Shown here: positions 10,574 through 37,590 of the stretch, piece by piece | Position numbering within the stretch: position 1 is the stretch's first letter | Layout: every line of letters begins with the position of its first letter | DNA from: Deltaproteobacteria bacterium | GTDB lineage: Bacteria > Desulfobacterota > GWC2-55-46 | NCBI GenBank assembly: GCA_038043525.1 | Contig: JBBTBW010000016.1 | Span: 14,713-78,712, forward strand | Length of the DNA stretch: 64,000 nucleotides | Direction: 5' to 3' | Program-made: the position numbers and the translations under genes | The notes under the pieces: generated by a model | Told to the model about the DNA's origin: nothing | Seen by the model: the letters and a program-made list of their open reading frames with translations, nothing else | Database searches by the model: none

Positions 10574-11617
10574 TCAGCATATCCTCGGGAGCTGTTCGCC
10601 AGAAGGCATATCGATTATGCGCCTGTTGCCGATCCGTGTCTCCATCAGGAGCCGGCCTTTCGCCCCGGCCCCGTCTGCTCCGCTAGCCGCTCCCTCTACG
10701 ACACCGATTATGGCCGCGTCTACCCCGAGCGGGTTTTTCTTCATCGCGGCAAGGACTCGTCCGGCCGATTCGCCTGATACGACCGCAACGAGCTTGCCTT
10801 CGTTGGCAAGGGATAACGGGTCGAACCCGAGCAGCTCGCACGCGCCTGTCACAGCGTCTTTTACAGGGAGCAGGTTCTCGTCAATGACTATAGTCGTGCC
10901 TGACGAGATGGCGAACTCATTAAGTACGGTAGCGACTCCTCCCCTTGTAGCGTCCCTCATAGCTTTTATGCACCCTCCGGCGCCTAACATGTCGGATACA
11001 AGAGCCCAGAGCGAGGCGCAGTCGCTCTCAACCGGGACTTCCATCTCTATCCCCGCCCGTTTTGTCATAACCGCTATCCCATGATCGCCTATCGTCCCAG
11101 AGACTATCACAGCGTCTCCGGGCCTGATAAGCGTCGGGGATAGAGAGAGGCCGTCTTGCACCACGCCGATGCCTGCCGTATTTATAAAGAGCTTGTCGCC
11201 CTTGCCCCTTTCTACTACCTTCGTATCTCCGGTGACGATGGAGACGCCTTGGGCCCGCGCCTCTTTTGCCATAGACTCGACGACTTTTTTTAGGTCATCG
11301 ATATCAAGCCCCTCTTCGATGATGAACCCGGCGCTCATGTACAGGGGCTTGGCTCCGCCCACGGCAAGGTCGTTTACAGTGCCGCAGACAGAGAGCTTTC
11401 CGATGTCGCCGCCCGGGAAGAATATCGGATTGATGACGTAGGAGTCGGTCGTGAAGGCGACCTGCGACTTCGGCATGGCGAATACTGCCTGGTCGTTTAA
11501 CGGCGCCAGAAGCTCGTTTGCGAACGCCCCTGCGAATACTTCTTCTATAAGCCTGCGCGTCAGAGAGCCACCACTGCCGTGCGCCAGAATGATCTTTTTG
11601 CCTCTATTATCTTCCAT
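10574..11617 (-). CDS. hypE: hydrogenase maturation protein HypE
   Basis: PurM/AIR-synthase-like fold (ILAHGSGG), C-terminal ...PRIC typical of HypE. Confidence 0.9.
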   Translation of the reverse strand: MEDNRGKKIILAHGSGGSLTRRLIEEVFAGAFANELLAPLNDQAVFAMPKSQVAFTTDSYVINPIFFPGGDIGKLSVCGTVNDLAVGGAKPLYMSAGFIIEEGLDIDDLKKVVESMAKEARAQGVSIVTGDTKVVERGKGDKLFINTAGIGVVQDGLSLSPTLIRPGDAVIVSGTIGDHGIAVMTKRAGIEMEVPVESDCASLWALVSDMLGAGGCIKAMRDATRGGVATVLNEFAISSGTTIVIDENLLPVKDAVTGACELLGFDPLSLANEGKLVAVVSGESAGRVLAAMKKNPLGVDAAIIGVVEGAASGADGAGAKGRLLMETRIGNRRIIDMPSGEQLPRIC

Positions 11618-11689
11618 GCAGGTATCTGCCTCCGGTATGTTCTATTGTTTTTTGGCTTGATTATCGCGTCGAGCGTCTGCTGTGATCCG

Positions 11690-12778
11690 TCAGACCGCCC
11701 TGTATTTGTAAAAAGCCGCGCAGGTGCCTTCAGAAGATACCATGCACGGGCCTACCGGGAATTCAGGGGTGCAGACCTTGGCGAAAAGAGGGCATCCTTC
11801 AGGCCTGATGAGGCCTTTAAGCACTGAGCCGCAGGCGCAGCCTTTAGGTTCTTCGTCTATCCCGGGTGCGATCGAGAATCTCTTTTGAGCGTCAAACCCT
11901 GAGTAGCTATCGTTTATGGCAAGGCCGCTCCCTGGGATGTTGCCTATCCCCCTCCACAGCGCATCGGCAGGGACAAAGACCTCGGCTATGACCTCCTGTG
12001 CCTTTGTGTTGCCTTCCCACCTGACGACCCTCTCGTATTGTATCTCGATCTCATTCCTTCCTTCTTCGAACTGCCTTATGAGCATGTATATCCCGTGCAA
12101 AGCGTCGAGCGGCTCGAAGCCTGCGACCACGCACGGCGCATTGAATTCAGAGGAGATGAAGCCGTAGGCCCTCGCGCCGATGATGGCGGTGACATGCCCT
12201 GGGCATAAAAAGCCGTCTATGTCGAGTTCTCCAGCCACGAGAAGGGCCCTCATCGCTGGCGGTGTGAGCTTATGGAGCGATAAGACGGAGAAGTTTTTGA
12301 GACCCTCTTTTTTAGCGGCGATTATAGTCGCGGCGACTGTAGGCGCGGTCGTCTCGAAGCCTACGGCGTACATGACGACCTCTTTGTCAGGGTTCTGTCT
12401 GGCGATATCGAGGGAGCCAAGGGCGGAATAGACGACGCGTATGTCGGACCCGTTGGCCCGCTCCTGTTGGAGGCTCGTCTTCGATCCCGGGACCTTCATC
12501 ATATCTCCGAATGTAGCGATGATGACACCGGGGGTGACCCTTGCAAAATCTATTATCCGGTTGATGTCAGAGGCGGACGTGACGCATACAGGGCACCCCG
12601 GCCCGGAGATGAGCCTTATGTTGGCGGGAAGCGCCTGGCGTATGCCGAACCGTGAGATGGCGTGTGTGTGGGTGCCGCATATCTCCATTATGGAGACGTC
12701 CTTCGTTGATATCTCGGCAATCTTTCGTATAAGCCCCTGCGCAAGCTCTTTTTGTCTGAACTCGTCTAAGTATCTCAT
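11690..12778 (-). CDS. hypD: hydrogenase maturation protein HypD
   Basis: CGTHTHAI, GPGCPVC and C-terminal CxxC...C motifs of HypD. Confidence 0.9.
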   Translation of the reverse strand: MRYLDEFRQKELAQGLIRKIAEISTKDVSIMEICGTHTHAISRFGIRQALPANIRLISGPGCPVCVTSASDINRIIDFARVTPGVIIATFGDMMKVPGSKTSLQQERANGSDIRVVYSALGSLDIARQNPDKEVVMYAVGFETTAPTVAATIIAAKKEGLKNFSVLSLHKLTPPAMRALLVAGELDIDGFLCPGHVTAIIGARAYGFISSEFNAPCVVAGFEPLDALHGIYMLIRQFEEGRNEIEIQYERVVRWEGNTKAQEVIAEVFVPADALWRGIGNIPGSGLAINDSYSGFDAQKRFSIAPGIDEEPKGCACGSVLKGLIRPEGCPLFAKVCTPEFPVGPCMVSSEGTCAAFYKYRAV

Positions 12779-22162: not shown

Positions 22163-22195
22163 CATCTGTAAGGCGCCTTTTGCGGTTTCAAGTTT

Positions 22196-22270
22196 ATAAC
22201 TTGAACCCAATGATCCGTAAAGGCGCATGCTAAATTCAAGGGGCAGGTTGTAAGCCTGCTCCTTGAAGAA
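22196..22270. repeat. left imperfect direct repeat flanking GmrSD insertion
   Basis: ACTTGAACCCAATGATCCGTAAAGGCGCATGCTAAATTCAAGGGGCAGGTTGTAAGCCTGCTCCTTGAAGAAG is ~80% identical to 24255-24328. Confidence 0.5.
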
Positions 22271-22368: not shown

Positions 22369-24144
22369 TCATTGCTCGATAGCTTTTTCAAGATCAGCAA
22401 TTGGCAAGGTAATACCATAGGATGCCAACAACATAGTAAGCGTCTCTTTATGGTTCCTTTTTAGATCATCCAACGTCCAATTATTGAAGGTTTGTAAAAT
22501 TCTTACGGAGTTGCTAAAAAGTTCTACGTTTTTCTGAAAGTATCCTTCCCTTTTTTGCCGGTAATCCTGATTGCCTTGTGCGGTATTCTTCCTCCGAGAC
22601 AGGAGAATGAGATTGCCGAGCCTGTTAGTCCATTTGTCTCGCTCCGGTCCTGTAAAATCAGCAACCCATTGACTACTTGTATCCGGTGTCTGAGGAAGAA
22701 TATGCTCAATGCTTATTGTTTCAGGTGGTGAAAATTTAGTTGTGTGCCCATGATAGGCAAGATCGATCTTTAAAATGATATATCTAGCATAACCACGGCC
22801 ATAAATTGCCCCTGTGAGCGATCGAAGAATATCCTGAGTTTCCACTTTGAAAACGGGAGAAGCAAACAGGGCATTTTGATCGGCTGCACCTTCGATCTCT
22901 TTGAGGATGGCATTTGCATTTTCGATACGTTTTGTTGGTGCCAATCCAATTATCCAATCAGAAGAAAACTTCACGTCTAAAAGGTGCAAGAACTTGAGTA
23001 AGTTTTCCGTTTTATATTTTGCGTAATAGCATAGAAGGGGTGCAATCCAGTAATCAGCCTCAAAACCAATTCGCATCAGGGTAAGTTGGTTGTGAAGTTC
23101 GAAGCTGTTTGTCAAATTGTAAGTGTCATCTTCAAAAAGACTAAGGTAGTGCTTATAATGACTTTCGACAAATTCGAAAGTATCTTCCCCTTTTTTTAAT
23201 AGCGGAGTTTTATTGATATAGGTTTTCGTATTACGGTCAAATTCTTTTGGAGCGTAGATATTTTCCTCAAATTCTTTAAGAAGATTGTAGCCTGCTTTCT
23301 GTTTGACAAGCACGGTTCTGAGGTGAGAGAGAAAGTTGTCGAACTCTTCAGTAAAATATCCCTCAATATTCTCCCATGTTTTTGCATATTTGGTTCTGGT
23401 GTTGTTGTCTTTAATTCTGGCGAGGTTCTCTGCCTTAAGAATGTCGCTATTGCGTAGCTTGATGCCTCGGTTGTTCATAACTGTAAACAGATGAAAGGCA
23501 TCTTCAAGCTCTTCAGTCGCAACATAGATCATCAGAACGTTGGAGCGTAAAAACGGAAAGAACGTTTCCAGAGATTTGCCATTCTTGAAAAAGCCTCTAA
23601 TGGTCAGAATGGCATTGGCCATATTTCTGATGGACATGTCTTCATCGTTTTCTTGAGAAAGATGCTTTATTTCTTCGTCTTTGAGTGTACCTCCATCTGC
23701 CTTGACGTACTTATCAACAAAATTCTTCACTGTATCGCGGATATCAAAGACAATACGACTGCGCTCGGGAATATTGTCGTCGGGATTTGCCATCTGATAA
23801 ATAGTTTCCCGGCAGGTCTTGATCCGCGCCTTATTGTCTGCTGGTGTTAGATCACGAACCACAGCAGTTATCAGGAAGAGGGTTGTCAGCCGTTGTTGGC
23901 CGTCAAGAAGGTCATGCTCTTCGTATCTGATATTCCCATCCTGCTTATCCGATTTTTTTAATACCATAGAACCAAGAAAGTACTGAGACCTGGGGTTAGA
24001 TTGACTCGCACGATACACATCATCAAGCAATTCTACAACTTGATCAGCCTCCCAAACATATGGACGCTGGTATTCCGGGATGCGGTACCATTTCAGGAAA
24101 ACATCTTTTACGAAAAGTTTCTCACTTTTAATTTCAGGCGCCAT
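22369..24144 (-). CDS. GmrSD-family type IV restriction endonuclease (DUF262 + DUF1524)
   Basis: N-terminal DUF262/ParB-like motif (EYQRPYVW...DGQQRLTT), C-terminal His-Me/HNH-like DUF1524 (IEHILPQ...NLILLSRRKN). Gene body is conspicuously AT-rich. GAGGTGG SD upstream. Confidence 0.85.
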   Translation of the reverse strand: MAPEIKSEKLFVKDVFLKWYRIPEYQRPYVWEADQVVELLDDVYRASQSNPRSQYFLGSMVLKKSDKQDGNIRYEEHDLLDGQQRLTTLFLITAVVRDLTPADNKARIKTCRETIYQMANPDDNIPERSRIVFDIRDTVKNFVDKYVKADGGTLKDEEIKHLSQENDEDMSIRNMANAILTIRGFFKNGKSLETFFPFLRSNVLMIYVATEELEDAFHLFTVMNNRGIKLRNSDILKAENLARIKDNNTRTKYAKTWENIEGYFTEEFDNFLSHLRTVLVKQKAGYNLLKEFEENIYAPKEFDRNTKTYINKTPLLKKGEDTFEFVESHYKHYLSLFEDDTYNLTNSFELHNQLTLMRIGFEADYWIAPLLCYYAKYKTENLLKFLHLLDVKFSSDWIIGLAPTKRIENANAILKEIEGAADQNALFASPVFKVETQDILRSLTGAIYGRGYARYIILKIDLAYHGHTTKFSPPETISIEHILPQTPDTSSQWVADFTGPERDKWTNRLGNLILLSRRKNTAQGNQDYRQKREGYFQKNVELFSNSVRILQTFNNWTLDDLKRNHKETLTMLLASYGITLPIADLEKAIEQ

Positions 24145-24254: not shown

Positions 24255-24328
24255 GACTTGAACTGCATGATCAGGAAAGGCGTATGCGAAATCCAAGGAG
24301 CAGGTTGCAAGCTTGCTCTTGCGAAGAA
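24255..24328. repeat. right imperfect direct repeat flanking GmrSD insertion
   Basis: ACTTGAACTGCATGATCAGGAAAGGCGTATGCGAAATCCAAGGAGCAGGTTGCAAGCTTGCTCTTGCGAAGAA, paralogous to 22196-22270. Confidence 0.5.
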
Positions 24329-24334
24329 AACCGC

Positions 24335-24775
24335 TTGTTACTAACCCCACCCAGCCTCCCCTTGTGAGTAAGGGGAGGAGCAAAACCAAAACGGCCTTTG
24401 AATTTAGCCGCTGCTTTTAACAAAACCCGGGTCATGGCGTAGCGAGCCTGACTGAGAGACGTTGAGCAGGTTCTTGTATCTACTGCGAAACGGCTCGAAA
24501 GCGAAGCGAGCCATACCCAAAAGGAGCGCCGAAGCGCAAAGCAAGAGTCAGACCGATGTTTTTCGCAAAGGGGCGTTGTAAAGAAAATCATTCGGCGGGT
24601 GTGACCCGCCCTACCAGACTTGTATCTGCTGCGAAACGGCCGGACAGCGAAAGCGAAGCGAGCCATACCCAAAAGGCGCACGGAAGTGCAAAGCAGGAGT
24701 CAGGCAGATGTTTTTTGTAAGGGCAGTTCGAGCCATACCCAAAAGACGCGCAGAAGTGCAACTCAGCTCTTTGTC
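24335..24775. repeat. block of modular dispersed repeats (palindrome unit A, the TTTGAATTT module, and ~160-nt structured unit C ending in GATGTTTTT)
   Basis: Shares near-identical modules with 32960-33117 and 36965-37590. Example: 24400-24560 is ~90% identical to 37425-37585. No ORF of credible coding quality. Confidence 0.65.
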
Positions 24776-24957
24776 CTCGACCATACCCCGTAAAGAAGCA
24801 GGGCAGTGCCTGCAATGATGAATAGATAACTGACAGGCCCTATCTGCTCGCCTGACTTGATGGCGAGCAGGGAATTCAATCCGCCTGTGAATACAAGCGC
24901 GCACCCGATGAGGCTGCGGCCAGCTCGGTTGGCATTATAACCCTCGTTCCCCTTCAT
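24763..24957 (-). CDS. putative small two-helix membrane protein
   Basis: 64-aa ORF whose ATG directly follows the radical-SAM stop (TAG-ATG), with two hydrophobic segments. Its 3' end runs into the repeat block, so it is speculative. Confidence 0.3.
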   Translation of the reverse strand: MKGNEGYNANRAGRSLIGCALVFTGGLNSLLAIKSGEQIGPVSYLFIIAGTALLLYGVWSRTKS

Positions 24958-32959: not shown

Positions 32960-33117
32960 ACGCAAATGGTGGGCTGAGTCCACCCTACCAATGTGTATCT
33001 CCGTCCTTCAAAATCAACCCCTCCCAGCCTCCCCTTGTAAGTAAGGGGAGGAGCCAAGTCTAAGCTCCGGCCTTTGAATTTTGCATTCGGCGGGTGTGAC
33101 CTGCCTTGCCAGACTGA
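32960..33117. repeat. dispersed repeat block (GGTGGGCTGAGTCCACC palindrome; CCTCCCCTTGTAAGTAAGGGGAGG palindrome; GGCGGGTGTGACC unit)
   Basis: Modules shared with 24335-24775 and 36965-37590. Confidence 0.55.
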
Positions 33118-36100
33118 TCAGAAGGTCAAATGCTCAGGTTTGCCTATATAATATCCCTGCGCATAGTCGACGCCAAGCTTCTTTAAGATCTGGAACGTCT
33201 CCTCGCTCTCTACGAATTCAGCGATGCTCTTCACCTTCATACCTCTCGCCACATCCGCTATGGCCTTGACGAAAAGCTGGTCGTTCGCGTTTTTTTTGAG
33301 GTTGCGTATGAAAGAACCGTCTATTTTTATATAGTCCACGTCGAGTTCCCTCAGATAGGTGAAAGACGTGAATCCCACGCCGAAATCGTCGAGGGAGAAA
33401 TGGCATCCGAGCGACTTCAGCGCCTTGATGAATCTTGCGGCCCGTTCGATGTCGCAGACCGCCGCCGTCTCCGTGATCTCAAAGACTATATGGTCGGGAT
33501 CGGCACCTGTTTCCGATATGGCGGACCTGATGAACAGCAGCAGATCGTCATCCATCAGGTCCTTTCCCGAGAGGTTTATGCTGAATGTGAGAGATCTGCC
33601 CTTGCGGCCTGCCTCCGACATGAGTATCAGAGTCTTTTTTATTATCTGTTTATCGACTGCTCCGATTATGTCGAACCTCTCGGCCACTTCGATAAAGGCG
33701 CCGGGCAGAAGGATGTTTCCTTCCTCGTCGCGCATCCGCGCCAGCGCCTCATAGTGGCGGACCTTGTTGTCGTTCAGCCCGATGATTGGCTGCATCCATA
33801 CCTCAAAGCGGTCTTCATCGAGGGCCTTGAGTATACGCTCCTTCCACTTGAGCCTTGAATGGATGTCTTCCAGTATATGGTCTTCATCGCGGTAGAGGTG
33901 GCTTCTGTTGCGTCCAAGCTCCTTGGCCCGGTACATGGCCGCATCGACCTTTGTGAAGAGTTCGCTCACCGCTGCCCCGTGGACAGGATACAGGACTGCG
34001 CCTATGCTTGCGGACAAACGGAAAGGAAGACTCCCCGAACGGTATCCCTCTATCTGTTCTCTGATCCTCTCAGCTATCGCCATACCTTTTTTTTCATCCG
34101 TCGGAGCCAGATAGATTGCGAACTCATCCCCGCCAAGCCGCCCCAGGATGGATTCTTCGTCCTGAAGGGTTTTCTTGAGCAGCCTGGAGACGCTTCTCAG
34201 CACCTCGTCACCGAGGCCGTGCCCGTACCCGTACGAATCGTTTATGAATTTGAAATGGTCTATGTCAAGCATCAGCAAGACTCCAGGTTCTTTGTCTTCC
34301 AGATTGCTGAAAAGCCGCTCGCCCATTAGTTCCATGAAACGCGACCTGTTCAAAAGGTCGGTCATCTCGTCGTGATAGGCGAGGTATTTGATCTTTGCTT
34401 CCGAGGCCTTCTTTTCAGTGATGTCTTCCTGGACCGCGAGGTAATTTATGATATTCCCGTTCTGGTCCTTGACCGGGCTTATGACCGTATTGCACCAGTA
34501 GCGCCCTCCGTCTTTCGTCCTGTTTTTCAGGATGCCGCGCCACGTCCATCCTCCCTTTATCGTGCCCCACATCTCCCCGTACATGGAATCAGGGGTCTCC
34601 CCTGAAGAAAGGATGCGGGGCGTCTGGCCAAGGGCCTCCTGTTTGGCGTAGCCCGTGACCTGCTCGAAAATCGGGTTTACGTATTCGATGACCCCGTCGC
34701 TGTCAGTGATGAAGACTATGCTACTGCTCTGTTCTATCGCCGCGGAAAGTTTTTTTATCTCGAAGGTCGCCTGCCTCTGTTCAGTGACATCGGTGCCGTA
34801 AATATTGACATACTCGCTTTGGGCCACCGGCGCCACTACCATCGAGAATATCCTGCCTTTATTCTTCAATTCGAGTAGTTTGGTTTTCTGAGAGTCGTAG
34901 ACCTCATTGACGGTCTGCTTCAAGGCCTCCGGCACTGATTGTCCAGCCTCGCATCCCCATTCATCAAGCAACGGGGCGCTCGCATCGTTTCCGTACAGTA
35001 TCGTTCCGTCCGTTGCGATGCGCAAGACAGGGTTCGGGTTCTCCGAAGGGAACTTTGCGAGGACCTTTATCTCTTCCTCGACCCGCTTGCGCTCGGTGAT
35101 ATCATGGGCCGCGCAGACTACCCCGAAGAGTGCGCCTCCGGCCCCTCTCATCACCGATCCTGAGAAAAGCACCGGTATCTTTCTGCCGTCTTTGGCCAGA
35201 TACGTCTTCTCGGCGTTGCGGATAAAACCGTTTTTCATAAGCTCTTCAAAGTCTTTTTCTTGTTCTTCAAATATCGTTAATATGGGCCTGCCCAAAAGTT
35301 CGTCATCTACGTAGCCTAACATATCAAGGGCGGCCTTGTTGACGGCGGAAACAGCGCCTTCGGGTGTCGTCACTATGAGGCTGTCCATCATGCTTTCAAA
35401 GATTTTTTCAACGTAATTCCTGGATACGGTTATCTTCTGCAGGTCCACGGCCATTTTGTTAAAGGCCGCTCCAAGCTCGCCGATCTCGTCTTTTGACACC
35501 AATTCGATTCGCGAGCCGAATTCTCCGGCACCGAATTTTAAAGCAGCGTTCCTGAGTCTTTCAATAGGCCTTGAGATGGAACGCGACACCATTAAGGCCA
35601 TAAGGACGACGAAGGCCGGAGAGACGGCAAAGAGCGCCAGCAATGCGTTCCTGACCCTCCTGACAGGACGCAGTATCTCGTCGGCGTTGAAGTCCATTAC
35701 GACAGTCCACCCAAGGCCGCTGAATCCCTTCGAATGGCTGAAGGCCCTCAATATTTCCATGCCTTCTTCAGGGATGAAAACGAAACCGCTTTTCCCTCCG
35801 AGCACGTCAGAGGCCCCCTGCAGTCGCGAGACATCCTCGCCGAACTCTTCGAGCCTTATGTCCTTGCCCTGTTTTTTCAGAGTCGGGTCCAGTCCGCTGA
35901 AGATGACAAGCCCTTTTTTGTCGAGCAGACGCGGCTCCATGCTCTTATATTTAGAACGCGTCTGGGCCAGATCGATGATGCTTTTCATGGCCTCTATATT
36001 CAAGACACCCTTGAGAAGACCTGCAAAGGCGCCTTTTCTGTCATATATGTTTACAACGATATCGATTGAAACTGCGTCTGAGCTTTCGTCGAATTCTACG

Positions 36101-36639
36101 TCGCCAAGCCAGAAATCCCTTTTTTTCAAGGCTTCTTGATACCACCGTTCGTCGGCCTGCAGATAATCGCTAGTCCTGCCGGTCGAAGCGAGGACAACGC
36201 CGTACCTGTTCGTCACGTATACTTCGCTAAAAGGCGCGTACTCGTATTTCTGTTTATAGAAATCGAGGTACCTTACGAGTTCCTCTGAGAGTTCATTATT
36301 CAATACGCTTGTTATGAATGGTGTCTGTTTTTTGCTTTTCCAGTCTTCGTCTGTTTTTTTGATGAAGTCCATGATGCCGGGTGTCTTATCGAATGCCTTG
36401 TTTGATCTGACGACATCCTTCGCCAGCAACAGGTCGTTAGCGTAGGCCTGTATATCCTCGACCCTGACATATATCTCTCTATCGACATCTCTTATGATAT
36501 CGTCCGCCAATTGAAGGGCGCTCTCACCCGCATCCTTTTTCATGGCATTTTCCGCAATGTAGATCGAGGCGACCCCTGCAATGGCGGACACAAAGATAAC
36601 CGTGGAAAAGGCAATAGTCAATTTTCGGCCGATCCTCAT
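33118..36639 (-). CDS. sensor diguanylate cyclase/phosphodiesterase (periplasmic sensor-HAMP-PAS x3-GGDEF-EAL)
   Basis: TM helix then periplasmic domain, second TM plus HAMP, three PAS-like segments, GGDEF (RLGGDEFAIYL), EAL (YEALARMRDEEGN). ATG at 36639 precedes the TM; the ORF-track start at 36798 is a GTG. Confidence 0.85.
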   Translation of the reverse strand: MRIGRKLTIAFSTVIFVSAIAGVASIYIAENAMKKDAGESALQLADDIIRDVDREIYVRVEDIQAYANDLLLAKDVVRSNKAFDKTPGIMDFIKKTDEDWKSKKQTPFITSVLNNELSEELVRYLDFYKQKYEYAPFSEVYVTNRYGVVLASTGRTSDYLQADERWYQEALKKRDFWLGDVEFDESSDAVSIDIVVNIYDRKGAFAGLLKGVLNIEAMKSIIDLAQTRSKYKSMEPRLLDKKGLVIFSGLDPTLKKQGKDIRLEEFGEDVSRLQGASDVLGGKSGFVFIPEEGMEILRAFSHSKGFSGLGWTVVMDFNADEILRPVRRVRNALLALFAVSPAFVVLMALMVSRSISRPIERLRNAALKFGAGEFGSRIELVSKDEIGELGAAFNKMAVDLQKITVSRNYVEKIFESMMDSLIVTTPEGAVSAVNKAALDMLGYVDDELLGRPILTIFEEQEKDFEELMKNGFIRNAEKTYLAKDGRKIPVLFSGSVMRGAGGALFGVVCAAHDITERKRVEEEIKVLAKFPSENPNPVLRIATDGTILYGNDASAPLLDEWGCEAGQSVPEALKQTVNEVYDSQKTKLLELKNKGRIFSMVVAPVAQSEYVNIYGTDVTEQRQATFEIKKLSAAIEQSSSIVFITDSDGVIEYVNPIFEQVTGYAKQEALGQTPRILSSGETPDSMYGEMWGTIKGGWTWRGILKNRTKDGGRYWCNTVISPVKDQNGNIINYLAVQEDITEKKASEAKIKYLAYHDEMTDLLNRSRFMELMGERLFSNLEDKEPGVLLMLDIDHFKFINDSYGYGHGLGDEVLRSVSRLLKKTLQDEESILGRLGGDEFAIYLAPTDEKKGMAIAERIREQIEGYRSGSLPFRLSASIGAVLYPVHGAAVSELFTKVDAAMYRAKELGRNRSHLYRDEDHILEDIHSRLKWKERILKALDEDRFEVWMQPIIGLNDNKVRHYEALARMRDEEGNILLPGAFIEVAERFDIIGAVDKQIIKKTLILMSEAGRKGRSLTFSINLSGKDLMDDDLLLFIRSAISETGADPDHIVFEITETAAVCDIERAARFIKALKSLGCHFSLDDFGVGFTSFTYLRELDVDYIKIDGSFIRNLKKNANDQLFVKAIADVARGMKVKSIAEFVESEETFQILKKLGVDYAQGYYIGKPEHLTF

Positions 36640-36964
36640 CCCAACCGCCTTGTTTTTTGCTCTCGCTGGAGCCGGTGCTAAATCGTCTGAAAAAGCGTGA
36701 AAGTCAGCTGAAAGGGGAAATATCCGGAGTTGCAAATTCATGGGGGTGTGGCTCAAAGATGGTATGCGCCTGCTTTTGCAGGCGGTCAGGCCCTTCACTG
36801 CGAGGCTGTCTCGAAGCCGCAGGGACTGAGCTGTCCGGGGTTACATTGGCGTTAGTGTAGTTCGTTGAAGACCTGAGAGATCGCCTGAACATCACCTGAC
36901 AATCAATATATTCTACGTCTGACTCGCTCTTTTTGCAACCGGCCCACAAAAAAACAAGGCTGAT

Positions 36965-37590
36965 GAGAGTTCAGGCCAGCCTCCCCTTGTGAGTAAGGCG
37001 CAAGAAGACAAAACTCCCCTCCTTACCAAGGAGGGGCTGGGGGTGGTTTGAGAATTAGTTTGCCTTTGCTTTAAAACAACCGGGGCATGGCGGAACGAGC
37101 CTAAAGGATGGCCGACGAACAGGCGGTGGTATCAACTGCGAGTCGGCCAGACAGCGAAGGGAGCCATACCCAAAAGATGCACGGCAAGTGCAAAGCTGAA
37201 ATCAGATAGATGTTTTTTTATTCGGGACGTTCGAGCCATGCACGAAAGGCGCACCCAGTGCGGCAAAAAAACATCCGGCGGGTGTGACCCGCTCTGCCGG
37301 ACTTACGCAAATGGTGGGCCGAGCCCACCCCACCCTACCTGACTACGTTGCTGACCTCTCTCAGTCTCCCCTTGTAAGTAAGGGGAGGTGTTAGGCAAAG
37401 ATCAAGACTTTGAATTTTGCCTTTGCTTTAAAACAATCGGGTCATGGCGTAGCGAGCCTGACTGAGAGCCGTAGAGCAGGTCCTTGTATCTACTGCGAAA
37501 CGGCTCGAAAGCGATGCGAGCCATACCCAAAAGGCGCACGGAAGTGCAAAGCTGAAATCAGACAGATGTTTTTTATACGGACGGTTCCTA
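36965..37590. repeat. dispersed repeat block (palindrome units plus two copies of ~160-nt unit C ending GATGTTTTTT)
   Basis: 37425-37585 is ~90% identical to 24400-24560; 37125-37275 is a diverged copy. Contains CCCCTCCTTaccAAGGAGGGG and TCTCCCCTTGTAAGTAAGGGGAGG palindromes. Confidence 0.65.

Follow-up and report, generated by a model that had tools for sequence, protein, structure and literature searches.

The intergenic regions of the window (the whole stretch of 64,000 nucleotides analysed here) contain three blocks built from the same repeated modules, and every block is flanked by Pfam-supported genes. Block 1 has a GmrSD gene on one side and, on the other, a small ORF following a radical-SAM gene; block 2 lies between convergent NUDIX and GGDEF-EAL genes, and block 3 between the stop codon of gatB and the promoter of the GGDEF-EAL gene. 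We distinguish the hairpin module A, the leader module B, the ~160-nt unit C and the palindromic modules D1 and D2; a further repeat, F+E, occurs in the same surroundings. The following features were located:

2015-2056, + strand: solo module A, between convergent genes
22187-22259: full copy of the F+E repeat
24256-24322, + strand: 5'-truncated F+E copy forming the left part of block 1, E hairpin at 24300-24316
24343-24380, + strand: module A of block 1, AACCCCACCCAGCC and then a 9-bp-stem hairpin at 24355-24378
24396-24422, + strand: module B, leader CTTTGAAT...TTTTAACA, continuing into unit C
24409-24571, + strand: full unit C, copy 1, type 1 (covariance model R1, 172 bits), with rod hairpin at ~24430-24518, small hairpin at 24526-24537 and T-tract at 24555-24563
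24574-24723, + strand: degenerate unit C (covariance model, 66.2 bits), its 5' arm replaced by D1, its 3' arm, core (24660), small hairpin and T-tract (24707-24716) retained
24594-24610, + strand: D1 (GGCGGGTGTGACCCGCC), with CTACC to 24615; the reverse strand reads GGTAG and then the palindrome, terminator-like on the - strand
24729-24766, + strand: isolated 3'-half fragment, GAGCCATACCC plus hairpin, abutting conserved unique sequence
32968-32984, + strand: D2 (GGTGGGCTGAGTCCACC), with CTACC to 32989, a REP-like hairpin
33016-33053, + strand: module A of block 2
33057-33105, + strand: fragment of module B (GGCCTTTGAATTTTGC) and then an imperfect D1 (33089-33105), without unit C
33089-33105 and 37277-37293, + strand: imperfect or degenerate copies of D1
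36976-37036, + strand: degenerate A and then inverted A (37014-37036), head to head
37059-37079 and 37416-37436, + strand: further copies of module B
37064-37225, + strand: full unit C, copy 2, type 2 (174.1 bits), T-tract at 37209-37219
37233-37262, + strand: 3'-half remnant
37313-37329, + strand: D2 of block 3
37365-37388, + strand: module A hairpin of block 3, variant TCTCCCCTT...AAGGGGAGG
37421-37581, + strand: full unit C, copy 3, type 1 (173.6 bits), T-tract at 37565-37574; the gatB stop codon is 20 nt from its end

Reading of the region together with repeat searches recovered all the modules A to D of the first-pass annotation at or near the positions given there. As it had claimed, all blocks of the window are intergenic and the modules keep the same relative order; order and orientation also recur in long arrays elsewhere. 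Some of its figures have to be adjusted. Block 1 begins at about 24256, with the partial F+E copy, and not at 24335. The count of at least four copies of unit C holds only if partial copies are included, there being three full copies, the degenerate one (66 bits) and two isolated 3' halves. The identity of the units at 24.4 kb and 37.4 kb, put at about 90%, amounts to 88% over 147 nt and 83% over 229 nt. A 22-nt core of the unit, GAGCCATACCCAAAAGRNGCRC, has five exact occurrences in the window and one with three mismatches, all of them on the + strand, and none in shuffled sequences.

Next, we examined how far the family extends. The species-representative genome collection yielded 0 exact matches to the 22-nt core, and the best GatB identity in it did not exceed 63%, showing that this lineage is missing from that collection; relatives for comparison were therefore drawn from the protein collection. 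The GatB of the window is also encoded on Hainich groundwater metagenome contigs (ENA ERZ12926xx). When the exact core was used as a probe for scanning the metagenome collection, 48 loci on many contigs were obtained, with 69 distinct copies, and all loci but one came from Hain-H41 contigs of similar coverage. Only six pairs of loci were redundant between assemblies, the copies at one locus being ~100% identical in different assemblies. A covariance model (R1), built on 46 full units C and scanned against 475 kb of contigs of the same Hainich groundwater population and of a sister species, gave 138 hits, about 100 of them full length and above 150 bits. Modules D1, D2 and A are present in about 42, 11 and 45 copies, respectively, in 410 kb of loci, and the repeat blocks of the metagenome loci measure from 25 nt to 1.2 kb. 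With 48 core loci on many contigs and 138 model hits, the copies are evidently not a local duplication confined to the window: the family is dispersed genome-wide, exclusively between genes. The one metagenome locus that did not come from such H41 contigs (L031) was a chance match in unrelated surrounding sequence. In viral contigs D1 had 0 matches, and the single core match found there was likewise due to chance, lying in AT-rich DNA without a covariance-model hit.

Lengths of indels among the copies are not multiples of three, which rules out a coding function of the units. Intergenic regions containing units are convergent in 12 cases, tandem in 15 and divergent in 5, a distribution that reveals a REP-like preference for 3' ends of genes. 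Within the tandem gaps, 11 units are antisense and 4 sense, a weak bias (binomial p ~0.06). The strand of the units is linked neither to GC skew (13 vs 20) nor to the majority gene strand (14:19).

According to RNAalifold and the refined structure, the ~160-nt unit C consists of an imperfect rod hairpin of ~90 nt and of a small 4-bp hairpin behind it. The rod starts with helix P1, in which GGGU(C)AUGGC pairs with GCCAUACCC, and continues with a 7x7 internal loop rich in purines, a GC/GC step, a single covarying pair (G-C or U-A) and a tandem G.A step. Then follows the 8-bp helix P2, for example GAGCCGUU/AACGGCUC in the first of two subtypes and UGGCCGAC/GUCGGCCA in the second, and, after a second tandem G.A step, helix P3 (GCAG/CUGC) with a terminal loop of 13-15 nt. 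The small hairpin is GCAC/GUGC, replaced by GCGC/GCGC in 7 of the 46 aligned copies. Paired cells make up 92.8% in this fold and 22-30% in slid-partner controls. Double-change cells number 52 against a shuffle mean of 21, a value that none of 500 shuffles reached, and compensatory change was found in seven pairs. In the set of 102 distinct copies, Watson-Crick pairs account for 2342 of 2652 cells. The pairing and double-change counts demonstrate that the fold of unit C is under constraint, and pairing in the rod is maintained by compensatory changes. Much of this covariation divides the two subtypes and may therefore stem from few events. The conserved secondary structure proposed for the main unit is thus borne out by compensatory changes.

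Counts of G.U and A.C (93 vs 67) single out no strand, and the folding stability of single sequences is unremarkable when compared with shuffles (z = -1.05 and -0.54). In an Rfam search of the window only two tRNAs reached the gathering threshold; with E-values up to 10 allowed, the best scores of the blocks were 11-16 bits (E = 2-9), with no family match, so the unit family is absent from Rfam. A hammerhead-like CUGA...GAAA core in type-1 units was rejected because on direct reading its spacing and sequence do not fit, type-2 units have no such core and Rfam is silent. In the terminal loop of the rod (alignment A1, columns 66-72; 24470-24476 in the window, for example), the first six nucleotides fall into few groups (YATCNG, YNNTTG, CGGYGG and YTGTGR) and are far more variable than the rest of unit C. 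Conservation is seen in the 3' half of this loop (UAUYUA).

The conserved purine-rich internal loops of the rod (tandem G.A), with pairs that covary on either side, look less like a mere palindrome than like a functional RNA motif. Two or three such loops are invariant, the stems around them covary and the 5' half of the terminal loop is variable, all of which would fit a functional structured nucleic acid, either a new class of multi-copy ncRNA or an RNA or ssDNA partner of a mobile-element enzyme. We regard this as a rather improbable identity for unit C. Were the rod indeed RNA or ssDNA recognised by a protein, it would offer a useful handle on repeat mobilisation outside Proteobacteria.

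Unit C does not stand alone. Modules have the same orientation as the nearest unit C in 36:4 cases for A, 31:1 for D1 and 4:0 for D2, and the order in long arrays is A, linker, B, rod, small hairpin, T-tract, linker, degenerate 3' half, D1 and again A. The ~70-nt 3' half is reiterated one to three times in arrays. Units are often truncated, extended by 3' halves or fused with D1, which then replaces the rod loop or the 5' arm. Uniform orientation and recurring order indicate that we are dealing with a composite super-unit of ~300-400 nt and not with independently inserted palindromes. The best-conserved module is D1, whose 17-mer, with its CTA(CC) flank, hardly varies among 30 copies and is set in several kinds of sequence context on either side, the inside of the rod included.

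Such arrays may be compared with BIMEs of E. coli. BIMEs, described by Gilson, Bachellier and colleagues, are intergenic mosaics of REP hairpins and other conserved motifs, with recurrent orders and tandem reiteration; in them the REPs point in alternating directions, and the additional motifs measure tens of nucleotides. Mosaic structure and tandem reiteration are common to both, whereas in our family the orientation is uniform and one of the modules is a 90-nt covarying rod. Neisserial NIMEs, in which RS units are flanked by dRS3, the target of phage and IS110-type integration, are a comparable case: there too, arrays consist of units with a short and strongly conserved palindromic repeat between them and flank variable or accessory genes, and it is the GmrSD and GGDEF-EAL genes that lie between arrays here. 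The link of dRS3 to phages and IS110 belongs to the neisserial system, and so do the clear 26-bp inverted ends (with TA duplication) of Correia elements, no consistent inverted ends having been found for unit C.

A REP is defined as a palindrome preceded on its 5' side by the conserved tetranucleotide GT[A/G]G (PMC3686654). Read on the reverse strand, D1 is GGTAG-GGCGGGTCACACCCGCC and D2 is GGTAG-GGTGGRCTCRGCCCACC, with a 7-bp G+C palindrome directly after GGTAG, so both modules fit this definition, which unit C and module A do not. REPs are numerous and hardly ever lie outside intergenic regions, with which the copy counts and the position of the window copies between genes also agree. It follows that the arrays are mosaics containing REPs, and the first-pass opinion that the repeats are something other than simple REP sequences is right for unit C and module A and wrong for D1 and D2. 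REPs of Stenotrophomonas such as GGTAGTGCCGGCC... are closely like D1 and D2 (PMC3116915, PMC3686654). Further traits shared with the REP/REPIN and RAYT systems of Pseudomonas, Stenotrophomonas and E. coli are the extragenic position, high copy number, vertical persistence, lineage specificity and the predicted long hairpins of ssDNA or RNA. There are differences as well. REPINs are inverted doublets, whereas D1 and D2 are single or in direct tandem and in one orientation (31:1, 4:0), the only head-to-head pair being that of module A at 36976-37036. The dominant module here, the 160-nt unit C, is unlike REPs in having no GT[A/G]G with an adjacent palindrome. Finally, REP/RAYT systems have a single-copy RAYT gene flanked by cognate REPs, whereas no ORF with RAYT-like motifs (Y..NP + HUH) was found in ~464 kb of the organism's sequence, which is part of the genome.

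As for architecture, the BOX element of Streptococcus pneumoniae (boxA-boxB(n)-boxC) is also present in about a hundred intergenic copies with extensive predicted structure, a fixed order and a variable internal module (PMC3049150). It is found in the closest relative species, is nearly absent beyond and was judged parasitic, with slow turnover (PMC3049150). Our family shares the fixed order of modules with variable internal copy number, in the form A-B-rod-3' half-(3' half)n-D1. The two were set side by side informally and no sequence likeness was noticed; the analogy is one of architecture only; the host belongs to another phylum, and the arrays reach 1.2 kb and include REP-type hairpins. 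Transcription has been demonstrated for BOX (PMC3049150), whereas the present family is known from sequence alone.

The arrays were also compared between related species. In the sister species GCA_040960175.1 (GatB 96%, radical SAM 90% identical, syntenic), arrays occupy the same sites in the same orientation and differ in content. At the gatB site it carries three units, the window two, and the module order is different; at the radical-SAM site the array differs as well and the GmrSD gene is absent. In another relative (L145, radical SAM 81%), D2-A-B-unit C adjoins NUDIX, which matches block 2, where the window has D1 in place of the unit. In a relative at 85% identity (L144) the contig ends in the E hairpin. 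Syntenic relatives at 79% and 76% GatB identity show no trace of the family and possess textbook terminators after gatB. Arrays at orthologous sites are thus present in three related species and are heavily rearranged: the family has persisted at these sites through at least three related species and was reshuffled by truncation, module replacement and tandem reiteration. Its presence in three species and absence at 76-79% GatB identity indicate that it is confined to a genus-level clade, predates the species splits and turns over fast. The loci compared included none at which a clean empty site pointed to an insertion polymorphism.

Several smaller observations concern the same loci. A 5-nt duplication (CCCAC CCCAC) in the D2 flank at 37325-37334 is present in H41 contigs and absent from an H32 contig (L003); this slippage polymorphism is the only indel difference seen between the wells in that interval. 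Downstream of gatB, one of the relatives devoid of the family (L139, ~11600-11830) contains other palindromic repeats, GTCATTCTGAGCGAAGCGAAGAATCTC...CTTCGCTCCCTCAGAATGAC, and also a TCTCCCCCTTTTCCAAAGGGGGAGA hairpin resembling module A, a hint that neighbouring lineages may have repeat families of a related or analogous type. The conserved sequence after the radical-SAM gene (window ~24775-24957, - strand) corresponds to an ORF of 64-66 aa called in relatives (L137, L139, L142-L144), and window and sister species agree in the point (CAGCTCTTTGTCC) where the array abuts this small-ORF region. Logan short-read contigs of related organisms (L133-L136, L142-L145) end less than ~180 nt after gatB or just past the small ORF, their last nucleotides falling within a unit or an E hairpin, as the repeats break short-read assemblies. 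A 139-aa ORF running across an array of the sister genome (L132, 16556-16975) is probably spurious.

Could unit C be a multi-copy family of sRNA genes, with a promoter in module B, termination at GATGTTTTTT and the rod as the functional RNA? The covariation-supported fold with internal loops conserved in sequence, the T-tract kept at the 3' end of most copies, an A-rich 5' leader able to pair with the T-tract in the MFE fold and the silence of Rfam, as might be expected of a new class, all speak for such genes, yet we find them distinctly unlikely. Consensus scans of blocks 1 and 3, whose reach is limited to sigma-70-like promoters, found none on the unit strand, and the module B hexamers TTGAAT and TAAACA are only ~13 nt apart. 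The terminal T-tract, which had been likened to an intrinsic terminator, does exist, but no G+C-rich stem directly precedes it, nor is any stem conserved in the ~25 nt before it, so it is not terminator-like, and no terminator was called on the + strand. All eight terminator-like sites of blocks 1 and 3 are opposite to the units, on the strand of the flanking genes, and are formed by D1 with a T-run, inverted A with a T-run, or the small hairpin with TTTT. In these two blocks, then, the units show neither a sigma-70-like promoter of their own nor an intrinsic terminator. The closing helix between leader and T-tract was dropped for want of covariation, GATG and GATA both facing an invariant AAACA; the z-score of -1.05 does not speak for an RNA gene and the G.U and A.C counts are indecisive as to strand; truncation, fusion with D1 and reiteration of half-units are unlike genes under selection. 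Of the proposed family of small structured RNAs there remains the conserved fold, the independent gene being unsupported. The other possibility raised by the first-pass annotation was a MITE, classically a deletion derivative of an insertion sequence with DDE transposase, having terminal inverted repeats and target-site duplications. A dispersed, intergenic, high-copy element of 160-350 nt whose whole unit is able to fold back on itself does invite this idea, all the more so as the co-located F+E repeat has inverted ends, TTGCGGG...CCCGCAA. A classical MITE is nevertheless very unlikely: the candidate terminal inverted repeat GACAAGAC/GTCTTGTC was found upstream of 5 and downstream of 10 of 46 units, none of which has it at both ends, the unit ends are ragged, solo copies share no common terminus or target duplication, and multi-module arrays of fixed orientation are atypical of MITEs. 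Clustering of ORFs from the 464 kb gave no multi-copy transposase-like ORF, the paralogous families there being response regulators, sigma-54 activators and sigma factors, and no transposase gene with the same ends is present in this sequence. A non-autonomous repeat it may well be; as inverted-repeat pairs, sharp ends and duplications were not found, it is very probably not a MITE in the strict sense.

The arrays might instead serve the host in cis, as terminators or insulators, stabilisers of mRNA 3' ends, or binding sites of nucleoid proteins or gyrase. Such roles were proposed for REPs and BIMEs of E. coli. They would accord with the location of all terminator-like sites of blocks 1 and 3 on the strand of the flanking genes, with the excess of units antisense to tandem genes (11 vs 4), with the retention of arrays at orthologous sites across species and with gatB, which in the window species has no canonical terminator ahead of the array, unlike in relatives lacking the family. 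On the other hand, strong canonical terminators lie between gene and array at the neighbouring gene in L008 and in L035 and at the EB_dh cytochrome gene of the sister species (L141), showing that termination does not in general depend on arrays. The bias in orientation is weak, array content differs between sister species and close relatives manage without the family altogether, and we therefore hold a host-serving function as the main explanation to be unlikely.

We consider it probable that the blocks are arrays of a previously undescribed, lineage-specific, non-coding and non-autonomous repeat of the REP/BIME/BOX kind. Elements of this sort are well known (PMC3116915, PMC3049150); this particular family is new. 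Its repeating entity would be the super-unit of ~300-400 nt, with a fixed order of A hairpin and linker, B leader, ~90-nt rod, small hairpin and T-tract, linker, a second, degenerate 3' half and the REP-like D1 and D2. Dissemination may take place at the DNA level by a trans-acting enzyme recognising folded single strands, the likeliest candidate being a Y1/HUH transposase of the RAYT type, with D1 and D2, where GTAG adjoins a palindrome, as its substrates. Local growth and decay of the arrays could result from slippage or recombination between modules. Hairpins read through from neighbouring genes may incidentally serve as 3'-end structures, the units presumably not being independent sRNA genes. 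Several observations count against this explanation: no RAYT is present in the 464 kb, D1 and D2 are direct rather than inverted, no clean empty site was seen, unit strand has no link with GC skew (13 vs 20), which strand-specific ssDNA transposition might have produced, and the G.A loops are like those of functional RNA.

If the repeats are of the REP/BIME/BOX kind, such repeats are documented here in an uncultured groundwater lineage of Thermodesulfobacteriota ('Deltaproteobacteria' MAGs). The family also explains why short-read assemblies break just after gatB and the radical-SAM gene and why gene callers report spurious ORFs in arrays, and the covariance model can be used for masking the repeats. 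Moreover, this repeat population kept its intergenic sites as the species diverged, was reshuffled in the process, and flanks accessory genes, namely those of GmrSD and GGDEF-EAL.

The F+E repeat (~95 nt) is also present in L009, L011, L017 (3 copies), L020, L023, L030, L032 and L051. Its closing stem TTGCGGG...CCCGCAA encloses three hairpins, TTCAAGTT-nnn-AACTTGAA, ATTCGTAT-loop-ATGCGAAAT and GGAGCAGGTT-GCA-AACCTGCTCC, giving a cloverleaf-like four-way junction with inverted ends, for which Rfam makes no tRNA call. Relative to unit C it occurs in both orientations, often within arrays. In the window, the full and the truncated F+E copy bracket, in direct orientation, the gene of the GmrSD type IV restriction enzyme (22369-24144, - strand). 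This gene is missing from the orthologous interval between EB_dh and radical SAM of the sister species and has the appearance of an accessory gene that was inserted into a repeat array or travelled with it.

A second accessory gene sitting between arrays is that of the GGDEF-EAL sensor (33118-36798). Arrays lie on both its sides (blocks 2 and 3), in the sister species too, and the gene is absent from the syntenic interval in relatives at 76-85% (L137, L139, L144), where other small genes or none are found. Upstream of it, just outside block 3, there is a promoter-like TTGCAA-17-TAGAAT (window 36938-36910, - strand); being conserved in the sister species, this sequence marks the unique boundary of the block 3 array.
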